Source: Perna viridis
Lineage: Eukaryota
DNA: 64,000 nucleotides
Assembly (NCBI GenBank): GCA_037379345.1
Contig: CM074522.1
Coordinates: forward strand, 26,350,001 to 26,414,000
Direction of reading: 5' to 3'
Both the position numbers and the translations under genes were made by a program. Below, one piece after another: positions 4,464-7,500 of this stretch; position 1 is the stretch's first letter, and each line of letters opens with the position of its first letter. A model generated the notes under the pieces. The model worked only from the letters and a program-made list of their open reading frames with translations. It searched no databases and had not been told where the DNA came from.

Positions 4464-4550
4464 TCACCATTGTAGAACGTGGTAGTGAAGAGAATCTGGA
4501 CTGGTGACATTTTGTAAGGTAGGTATTCCACCGCACTGTTGTCTTACAAT
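4464..4550 (-). CDS. Gene 1 terminal exon
   Basis: tgtttag|[34 protein letters not shown] follows at 4434-4439 on the minus strand. Confidence 0.85.
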   Translation of the reverse strand: MVRQQCGGIPTLQNVTSPDSLHYHVLQW

Positions 4551-7500
4551 CTAAACAGATTAAAACAGAAGTAAATAGTATTCTTTTCATCTTAATGAAT
4601 TTGAAATTAAAGAGGCATTTAAACACCTTCATTTGCTGCGTTTCCAGACATATACCATTACACAGATAAAATTGTTAGTTTGAAAATCTAAACCTTATGA
4701 CAACCATGTGGTAAACTTTTCCTTTATTAAATACAATAAAACAGTACTTCCGGCATATGAAGTACACACATGATCTGCTCTGCCATGCAGGTTACTTGTA
4801 CATTGAATTTCAAGGTAAATCTATTATAACCTATTTCAGCAGGGGTTTTAATCAATTGGACAAACGCCTAAATATCGCCGTTGAAATCTGATTGAACGGT
4901 ACCAGGTTTTATTCTCACAGAGCAGAAAATATATCATTAACTTGCTTCAAGTCTTACCAGTATGCCAACCAAACAACGCCTAACGGATTATATACATTCG
5001 CAGTGTGACGGTTGTCACTGGCAGTTACATTGTAAACGTGCTTACCTGCTGGAGCCACTTTTCACAAAATTGAATTTGATTTCGTTGCCTGCAGTGTTAG
5101 TTGATCTTTTCTTTTCAGTGTTTTGCCATATCTTTAGCTTATGATATCTTTTAATTATTATGTTATTTTTTACTGTATTTTTGCTGATACACTACTTAAT
5201 GACCGTATTTGTTATTCATCTGCAATTTTACGCGTTTTATTTTAGTTTTGAAACGTTATGTTCAGAATTATTCTATGCTGATTGAATGGATAAATATGCA
5301 TTCAACATTTTAACTGAACAACTTTATAACAGGAATATTTGACAATTTTTACTAATAATTGATCGGATCAAACAGCTACAGGTCTTTGAGAAACTATATG
5401 AACTTTTTTTTTTATGTTTTCTTTTTTTGTTTGTTTTTTTTTTGTTTTATTTTTTGCATGTGCCTTGTATATTCAATGTTTATTTTATCTACTTATCATA
5501 TGTTGAATTTGTTTCATATACTTTTTTTTTAAAATGTTTGGTTTCAATCCATTCTCAAATCGCCTTTAAAACAGAGAAATAGTGTAAGAAAACATGCATG
5601 CACTGTAGATGAATATTCACCTCAATTTGACCGTTGTTATAACAACTAATTAAAACTCCTACATGATCTGTTAAGTGACCATTTCTCAGCTTACCAACTG
5701 GAATATATGATGGCAAACTGTGGCAAAGATTGGATACCTATTCAAATAAATATGTATATTTTATATACGTTTGGTACAAAGCTAATGAACAACAGAAAAA
5801 AAGACGCATTTACAGTTTTATCAACTGATCAATTCATTGAAAATTATACCTACAGTATACATCGGAATAATTATTCGTAGCTACATACATGTATCTGCCA
5901 AATTATGATGCCAAATATGAGGGTGAACTCCCTCATTCCAAAACTGAAATGAGGGTAATAGTCCGCAAGGACATTTATTTGATGTATACAAAAACATTTT
6001 TGACGCAACGACAGTTTTTAGCAATAAATAATAACGTCTTAAACAAGGTATCTGTGTCATTATTTAATTATCACAGACCCAATATGGTTCATATATTTGT
6101 GAAACAAATTTTAAAAAATGACACCATTTAACTGTTAATGTTGAATCTAAATACGACTTATAAGGGTTTGCAAGAATCATATTAAGCTTTGAAAATGACA
6201 CAAAAGATAATACAAATAATGAAAAGATACAACAAAGGACTATGGAGGTATTCGAATGCATGATTTGACTAAAAATTCTTGTCAATGTTTCTTCGATCCC
6301 TGCATCACGTTTACTGAAAAATCGGGCAAAATAACATCCCAAAATAGGTCGTATGCTGTTCGCTAATGAATTAAAATATTCCTCATTTTTTAAAAATTAC
6401 TTTTAAAAATATCGATGCCATGTTCTGAATTGACGAAAAATTCTCTTATGATGCTGTTTAAAAAAAAATAATAAAACAAAACAAAAACAAACAAACAAAA
6501 AACAACGAATTCGGTGCATTTATCTTGCATTTTGTGACTCCCGTCAGGGAGGGGCTGCATCATTGTAGCTAGATAATTACCAGATTACAGTCACTTGCAG
6601 TATGACGTATGTCGCTAGCGGTTCAGGACATACCGACCTTTTTGGGACACCTGATACATATATTACTCCCGGTTTTACGTGCGAGTTCATATTACCATAG
6701 TAGAGTTTTGTGTAAAGTTTAGTTTTCCTTTTTATATTTAATTTATTCTATTCGTTTCTCAGCATTATGAATGTAAATCATCTTAGTCTCCAGATTTCTG
6801 GCCATGTATTAGGGTTTTCATGTATTTTAATAGTCGCATTGTTCTCTATTTGCTATTTTGTTAGTGTCTCCGACTATTGTATAAATTAACCATTTCCAAA
6901 TTTACCTCAATACCAGGACTCCAATTCGAGATCGATGGAGCTCCACAGAGATTCATGATTAATGCATCTGCTGAATTTGTGCCATCTAAACATCCGTTCG
7001 ATGACACAGCTTGAAGGCTTTGACCCTTGGCAATGCTTGTAATGGTGCTGAACTTATTGCACTGTCTAACTTTTGGTACTTAAGAATCAGATACATACAA
7101 ATAATTGACTTAAACACGTATGATAAAAGACAACACAGCAGCAAATAACATCTCCAATAAGCATATGTATCATTTTGTGTTTGTTTTATTGTATCAATAA
7201 TATTAATATGATTTCAGGCTTTACCTATGACGGACAGAATCTATATATTAGTCAAATACCAAATTAGTTGATAATGCACACCAGTAATACGTCCAAGATA
7301 TACGAAAGGTGAAAACAAATATAAATAAAATGGTGAATAAATCAGTTTTAATTGTGCATATTGAAACACTATAACGACCCATGATTTCCTAATGACGACT
7401 ATAATATTTTTATGTAATGACTTTAATCTGGTAGCACCATCAACCGGATCCAGAAGCCTACTTGTTAGCAGTCTTGTATGGTTCGAAAGTTCTACGTAGT

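Follow-up and report, generated by a model that had tools for sequence, protein, structure and literature searches.

The C-terminal domain of a predicted secreted EGF protein of Perna viridis is almost certainly homologous to the Tae2/BPSL0067 amidase effectors and shares their fold, as judged from profile comparisons and structural models, but the Cys-His-Asp chemistry of those enzymes is very probably absent from this domain and from the family to which it belongs. The gene lies on the minus strand of the window, by which we mean the whole 64,000-nucleotide stretch that was analyzed (contig CM074522.1, positions 26,350,001 to 26,414,000). Comparisons across the family show the domain to be an old, kept module that stands at the C terminus and carries six conserved Cys residues. 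We tentatively propose that the catalytically dead domain is a binding head on a predicted secreted EGF rod, with peptidoglycan or the bacterial surface as its putative ligand.

The gene is surrounded by AT-rich animal DNA and sits on a contig of 38 Mb, the whole assembly being 723 Mb. Splice signals, reading frame, and homology together yield a predicted model of 26 exons and 665 aa (a 25-exon, 662-codon frame plus one further 9-nt micro-exon), whose features are collected in Table 1. In this model a hydrophobic leader is followed by a His-rich domain, ten EGFs, a short Thr/Pro stalk, and the 119-aa Tae2-like domain (residues 547 to 665), so the EGF rod and mucin stalk that the initial annotation had placed upstream of the domain are seen in the predicted protein. 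The His-rich domain (18 His in 86 residues) is kin to the N termini of the Mytilus EGF proteins P0072 and P0005. A second hydrophobic stretch that could act as a membrane anchor was looked for in the predicted 665-aa protein and none was seen. What we found is an integrated, intron-bearing eukaryotic gene with a secretion signal, as in dae genes, the leader being recognized by hydropathy only.

Table 1. Predicted features of the gene, in window coordinates
Feature	Position	Strand	Content or basis
Start codon (predicted)	30149..30151	-	GT donor directly after; splice signals, frame
Hydrophobic leader (predicted signal peptide) and His-rich N-terminal domain	28505..28828	-	Leader from hydropathy only
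N-terminal Cys-containing domain, end part	27591..27651	-	Gene model
Ten EGF exons and eight 9-nt micro-exons, whole span	10316..26683	-	Predicted from splice signals and frame
EGF exons 1-5	26683-26558, 24854-24753, 22377-22255, 19731-19627, 17886-17782	-	All phase 1-1
EGF exons 6-8	16009-15908, 14564-14463, 12723-12622	-	All phase 1-1
EGF exons 9-10	11436-11332 (GC donor), 10417-10316	-	Both phase 1-1
Eight 9-nt micro-exons between EGF exons	25519, 21480, 18430, 17383, 15284, 13280, 12042, 10940	-	
Thr/Pro-rich stalk micro-exon, 27 nt	9202..9228	-	Gene model
Thr/Pro-rich stalk exon, 20 codons	8190..8249	-	Gene model
Tae2-like domain, exon A	6906..7078	-	N-terminal extension; Cys 7061, 6992, 6947; nucleophile-site Ala (GCA, 6971-6969); adjoining acidic residue 6968-6966; WxxG motif
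Tae2-like domain, exon B	5621..5737	-	Cys 5725; LPxY motif; His site (CAT, 5665-5663); Cys 5644
Tae2-like domain, exon C and stop	4464..4550	-	RQQ at DQW position (Asp lost, now Arg, AGA, 4544-4542; Gln kept); Cys 4535; terminal strand; stop TGA 4466-4464

The three exons of the domain are present where they had been annotated. All are AG/GT bounded, with entry phase 1 for exon A and phase 0 for exons B and C. All three exons were also recovered for seven paralogues in the same genome, and these have both introns at identical places in phase 0. In addition, the spliced translation aligns without gaps across both introns to a RefSeq protein of Mytilus galloprovincialis (XP_076087129.1, hereafter P0127; 58/119 identical), the nearest full-domain relative, in which EGF, stalk, and domain are likewise combined. 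The earlier view that this is an animal gene and not bacterial contamination is supported.

To compare the domain with bacterial Tae2, we scanned bacterial genomes for the motif. Of the 121 loci obtained, 113 have an in-frame ORF, and 106 were retained after removal of fragments and of rows in which no Cys stood where the spacing called for one; the invariance of His, Asp, and Cys in these 106 rows is therefore fixed by how the set was built. Each of six tested members belongs to the BPSL0067 family NF033857, and the set matches the Tae2 structure PDB 6WIN at E 8.7e-35. Against the profile of this set, the window domain alone scored a borderline 8.6 bits (exceeded by 2 of 5,000 shuffles) and one paralogue domain scored 32.4 bits. 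Profile-to-profile comparison in hhalign was far clearer: the eight paralogue domains aligned end to end over 90 columns at 97.6% (E 4.3e-12), and the 97-domain family profile described below reached 98.5% (E 1.6e-15). Exon classes A, B, and C map in order to bacterial profile positions 30-52, 53-94, and 119-132.

Searches of public collections point the same way. When the family profile was run against 177,635 PDB sequences, its best match was 6WIN (E 0.033), and the top matches of a whole-domain ESM Atlas search were BPSL0067 clusters. NF033857 was matched by 29 of 58 family members at E<=0.1 (best E 2.2e-6), and no other family drew matches from as many as two of the 58; neither the single window exons nor P0127 gave a match to NF033857, for which the formal cut-off is 27 bits. 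Pfam and NCBIfam scans of the single window exons likewise gave none. AlphaFold models were obtained for two relatives of the window protein, P0127 (its orthologue, 49% identical to the window domain) and P0095, from mollusc-only alignments without bacterial rows. In both, the domain has a pLDDT mostly above 90 and an alpha+beta, papain-like fold with four helices. Among 48,161 chains, 6WIN ranked first for P0127 (Z 13.2, rmsd 2.2, 109 aligned; next Z 9.9) and for P0095 (Z 13.3, rmsd 2.5, 116 aligned; next Z 9.3), ahead of CHAP endolysins and NlpC folds (Z <=9.9). Foldseek with a model returned nothing at E<=0.001 and placed 6WIN at rank 2 (E 7.3e-3). The Tae2/Dae2 homology claimed in the initial annotation is thus upheld by both profile and structure. 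The domain resembles Tae2/BPSL0067 (NF033857; 6WIN, from Salmonella Typhi) in its fold, in the order and spacing of the helix, WxxG, and strand motifs, in the Gln of DQW, and in the terminal strand. It differs in that the mollusc domain lacks the catalytic Cys, the Asp, and the Trp and has six structural Cys, and in that the window domain forms the C-terminal part of a long protein, predicted to be secreted, whose animal gene is spliced.

The domain had been regarded as part of a single odd gene, a view that the searches do not support. At least nine copies are present in the P. viridis genome (exon A found six more, and a second and a third query added one each), and an eight-sequence exon-A profile run with HMMER against 1.84 billion proteins gave 122 hits. 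Seven of these are not kin (six ricin-like repeats and one other), scoring <=15 bits on the whole-domain profile. Word-index searches of longer proteins with exon A or its alignment found no matches; it took the full HMMER search to find them. We looked up 26 clusters, and the 19 with a named source all came from molluscs; the hosts comprise mussels, oysters, scallops, a freshwater mussel, several clams, and one gastropod (Haliotis asinina). Several of the P. viridis copies have close Mytilus counterparts, and the copies are old and deeply diverged. Such counterparts are compatible with stable extracellular roles as well as with an arms race.

Architecture was counted in 81 family proteins of >=200 aa with a full domain. 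The domain is C-terminal in 79 of them and is preceded by a Thr/Ser/Pro-rich stretch in 52. An N-terminal hydrophobic stretch is found in 38, many of the models looking 5'-truncated, and a membrane-like stretch in one. Pfam partners among the 53 proteins scanned are EGF, TSP1, ShK, VWA, SH3_3, and DUF4874/DUF4832, with the bacterial SH3 domain occurring in one member at Pfam's cut-off; the same scan assigned no family to the Tae2-like domain itself. Database labels for these proteins are "uncharacterized," "Notch-like," and "delta-like."

Loss of the active site was assessed in 97 unique domains (89 from P0004-P0173 at >=55 bits with the core covered, plus eight copies from the P. viridis genome, that of the window included), whose rows are not independent because many oyster rows are near-copies. 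Catalysis by Tae2 depends on residues Cys23 and His73, and replacement of the Cys by Ala gives the inactive Dae2 that serves as a control, according to Hayes et al. (bioRxiv 10.1101/2020.04.10.036376). Cys occupies the nucleophile site in none of the 97 domains; the commonest residues there are Ser (51), Pro (15), and Ala (12), and the window copy and its orthologue P0127 share the Ala. The Cys-to-Ala change read from the window by the initial annotation is genuine. Its companion claim, that the catalytic His is kept, stands for the window copy but not for the family: His occurs at this site in 1/97 domains, that of the window, and is Ile in P0127. For this reason the His is best read from these alignments as a relic or a chance return, incidental rather than half of a conserved dyad. 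At the DQW position, Asp and Trp are both absent (0/97 each), with Gln in 86/97.

Other positions are held far more tightly. The WxxG Trp is present in 97/97 domains, with the Gly also conserved, as is a Tyr-Thr-Pro motif (YTP-x-x-x-F). Each of the six Cys occurs in 91 to 97 of the domains, and because they co-occur across the family, they would form three disulfides. The residue directly after the nucleophile site is Asp or Glu in 94/97 mollusc-family domains versus Val in 100/106 bacterial sequences.

The same Cys residues bear on where the domain came from. In a by-eye comparison with Suppl. Fig. S2 of PMC11347951, all eight tick Dae2 rows have, like molluscs, a Cys after WxxGxxV and a Cys at His+7, as well as a Cys at the helix end. 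In the bacterial set the pair is nearly missing (2/106 after WxxGxxV and 0/106 at His+7). A position that is Gly in 102/106 bacteria is Phe, Trp, or Met in ticks (PMC11347951) and mostly Tyr in molluscs. Tick and mite Dae2 thus resembles the mollusc domain as a secreted animal Tae2 homologue with these three Cys and the non-Gly residue. Unlike the window protein, Dae2 stands alone and actively hydrolyzes peptidoglycan, according to Hayes et al. (bioRxiv 10.1101/2020.04.10.036376); two of the six Cys found in molluscs are absent from it, as are EGF and mucin parts.

A metagenome scan that required the His motif, the His+7 Cys, and DQW to lie at set distances returned three hits, of which two are real (L166 and L168, here P0174 and P0176) and one (L167) is a chance match; the same scan of viral contigs gave no hits. 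P0174 has its Cys, His, and Asp intact together with all six mollusc Cys, including the one in DQW-C, and five of these lay outside the search pattern. In P0176 a Ser takes the place of the nucleophile; this protein retains the His and Asp and carries the six mollusc Cys and a mollusc-type N-terminal extension. The two score 81 and 74 bits, respectively, on the mollusc profile (bacteria reach <=34), and both lie above the NF033857 cut-off. Each lies by itself on a contig of 1.3 kb, has a hydrophobic leader, and is followed by some 600 nt of sequence lower in GC, an arrangement that appears to resemble eukaryotic mRNA. Both are stand-alone proteins, unlike the C-terminal module of molluscs, and P0174 also differs in its intact catalytic residues. 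In an unrooted tree of 30 chosen mollusc and 30 chosen bacterial rows plus P0174 and P0176, with tick rows left out, the phylogeny against bacterial Tae2 proposed earlier puts molluscs on one branch (100/99), within which the window copy and P0127 group together (100/93). That branch does not adjoin the bacterial one (100/95) directly, since P0174 and P0176 lie between the two. Loose searches of the P. viridis genome for an active Dae2-like copy found none with P0174 as a protein query, which returned one further dead paralogue, and none among 20 hits to a His-motif pattern that had family context.

Because molluscs share the Cys pair with tick Dae2, and because the two bridging proteins lie between bacteria and molluscs in the tree, a separate capture from bacteria, as first envisaged, now looks doubtful. 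Either one common transfer or uptake from one unsampled donor group could link ticks and molluscs. On the sequences compared here, the simplest reading would be that bacterial Tae2 gave rise to a secreted, disulfide-bearing enzyme, which in molluscs lost its Cys, His, and Asp and was fused to scaffolds. A bolder version, which we consider rather unlikely, would have one ancient capture of Tae2 predate the mollusc-arthropod split; the resulting secreted, disulfide-locked enzyme would have stayed active in ticks and some other eukaryotes and have been disarmed and multiplied in molluscs into PGRP-like, putative peptidoglycan receptors on EGF, TSP1, ShK, VWA, and mucin scaffolds.

The binding head that we tentatively favor would descend from a secreted, disulfide-stabilized, Dae2-like enzyme. 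The Cys may have been lost first, Ser now being the commonest residue at its site, and the His and Asp afterward. The old substrate groove, together with an Asp/Glu that is new and almost invariant next to the former nucleophile site, would then grip a ligand without cutting it. In an AlphaFold model the helix starts at this acidic residue, and ordinary helix capping may account for a Ser or Pro followed by Asp or Glu in such a place. The ten-EGF rod and glycosylated stalk would display the rigid, disulfide-locked head, and the rod or other partner domains could anchor this head within mucus or haemolymph and connect it with cells or effectors. Non-catalytic PGRPs, in which a peptidoglycan amidase fold lost catalysis and became a receptor, offer a works-like model; theirs is the zinc-dependent T7-lysozyme fold, and no homology to the Tae2-like domain is claimed.

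Peptidoglycan is the first candidate because it would have been the substrate of the ancestor and is that of nearly all close fold relatives in the structure search, because one member bears an SH3 domain, and because in Nematostella a dae4 homologue without the Cys is induced along with antibacterial genes, as reported in PMC8713801. Dae4/Tae4 (PF14113) is, according to the same source, a domesticated amidase effector able to lose its Cys, as the window domain has done, but it is another Tae family. PF14113 matches twice in the P. viridis genome, on contig C3 and unlinked to the window gene, in keeping with the initial distinction between this gene and Tae4-type genes; a PDB sequence search with one Tae4-like ORF (L170) gave no match at E<=0.01.

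Since the active-site His, Asp, and Trp vary freely, the ancestral substrate may not fit the groove any more, and the ligand could come from the host instead. The same dead head might bind a protein or glycan of the matrix, mucus, shell, or byssus, with the bacterial link being historical only. We take this possibility seriously and consider it nearly as likely as peptidoglycan, because conservation does not extend to the active site and the domain is joined to extracellular modules of a general kind (EGF, TSP1, VWA, mucin stalks); the age and deep divergence of the copies and the His-rich N-terminal region of the window protein also suit it. However, we know of no host ligand for any Tae2/CHAP fold, and the WxxG, YTP-x-x-x-F, and Gln positions common with bacterial enzymes are still conserved. 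A purely structural role, with the folded domain acting as a cap or spacer and binding no specific ligand, is unlikely: conserved positions are mostly Cys, Trp, Gly, and hydrophobic core, as such a role would allow, but at least nine copies have been kept, and a distal C-terminal position (79/81), in 52/81 behind a stalk, is the usual place of a display head.

Two further alternatives concern what the domain is rather than what it binds. It is improbable, more so than a spacer role, that the family is still enzymatic by other chemistry, for example with a Ser nucleophile and the neighboring Glu. The 51 domains with Ser, the acidic neighbor in nearly all, and the Ser, His, and Asp of bridging P0176 are what such an enzyme would predict, but 46/97 domains have Pro, Ala, Asn, His, or another residue at the site, the window copy among them with Ala, and a general base is not conserved (His 1/97). 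Least credible of all, at a barely perceptible probability, is that the domain is a ricin-B-type lectin and its likeness to Tae2 due to chance. Exon A alone does match such lectins weakly (PDB E 0.07; Atlas 0.94, with only 108-140 shared features), and the ricin-like repeats among its database hits have been noted above, but those fall away on the whole-domain profile, whereas the whole-domain models, alpha+beta with four helices, match Tae2 and the Atlas leads to BPSL0067. We rejected this identity, as there is no beta-trefoil of three repeats and whole-domain searches give Tae2.

We found no description of a mollusc Tae2-like family in the full-text literature searched, a coverage that largely excludes subscription journals, and the available portions of PMC5303276, PMC3482391, and PMC6006793 do not describe one. 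We take the domain to be a real pseudoenzyme variant, apparently not described before, among the domesticated amidase effectors; it is homologous to Tae2/Dae2 but would stand outside the active family. The known domesticated Tae toxins are small enzymes with antibacterial activity, and in the literature examined Dae2 is linked to ticks and mites. The window gene represents a different fate, in which catalysis was shut down and the former enzyme was shuffled, as an extracellular module, into many proteins of molluscs. Recognizing it names an unannotated domain, lets the conversion of an enzyme to a receptor after horizontal transfer be tested, and raises the question of how often and how early animals captured tae2. 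For farmed bivalves, it may also mean a further class of bacterial sensors.

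The eight 9-nt micro-exons of the gene under study are interleaved with its EGF exons, each contributing three linker residues, and exons of this size are easily overlooked by gene finders. Further upstream lies a Cys-containing domain at the N terminus, interrupted by a His-rich insert; it matched no Pfam family and is kin to the N termini of the Mytilus EGF proteins P0072 and P0005. The LDL-receptor class A-like gene is oriented head to head with the gene under study, and the exon at the far edge of the window belongs to another gene, presumably resembling major royal jelly/yellow proteins. 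The dispersed repeat families recur in the window and at the paralogue loci and are likely short mobile elements.

Features in the window, the Perna viridis genome (G000; contigs C3, C12 and C13) and metagenome contigs
Feature	Position	Strand	Remark
Eight 9-nt micro-exons	window 10932-25519	-	
N-terminal Cys-containing domain	window 27591-28828	-	
LDL-receptor class A-like gene	window ~31700-57950	+	at least 12 exons
Another gene, last exon	window 63691-64000	-	
Dispersed repeat families	window 20004-20407, 62996-63407; also 3186-3512, 41396-41620, 54321-54527, 58501-58754		
Ninth paralogue, L169	G000:C12:18905438-18908551		
DUF4874/DUF4832 copy, L149	G000:C13 ~29.08 Mb		
Tae4-family (PF14113) match, L170	G000:C3:2679827-2680213	+	score above cut-off
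Tae4-family (PF14113) match, L171	G000:C3:2618876-2619220	-	score above cut-off
Tae2-like protein, L166	L166:617-1060	-	catalytically intact
Tae2-like protein, L168	L168:58-525	+	catalytic Cys to Ser

Both metagenome contigs encode stand-alone proteins with six Cys and a hydrophobic leader, and are likely to carry eukaryotic Dae2-like genes; the L168 protein also has an insert rich in His/Asp. Among tick sequences, the published alignment shows Irseq_658490, the Dae2 type 1 transcript of Ixodes ricinus, with a Ser in place of the catalytic Cys, in which it differs from the remaining seven Dae2 rows (PMC11347951 Suppl. Fig. S2).

In the ninth Perna viridis paralogue of the dead domain, Asp occupies the nucleophile site and Gly the His site; the family residue counts are those without this copy. 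A mussel and scallop subfamily (L149, P0009, P0099) carries DUF4874 and DUF4832 followed by the dead domain, and its Perna viridis copy, L149, grouped with P0009. Both Tae4-family matches have Ser at the presumed catalytic-Cys position of Tae4, so these Tae4-type copies may also be disarmed.
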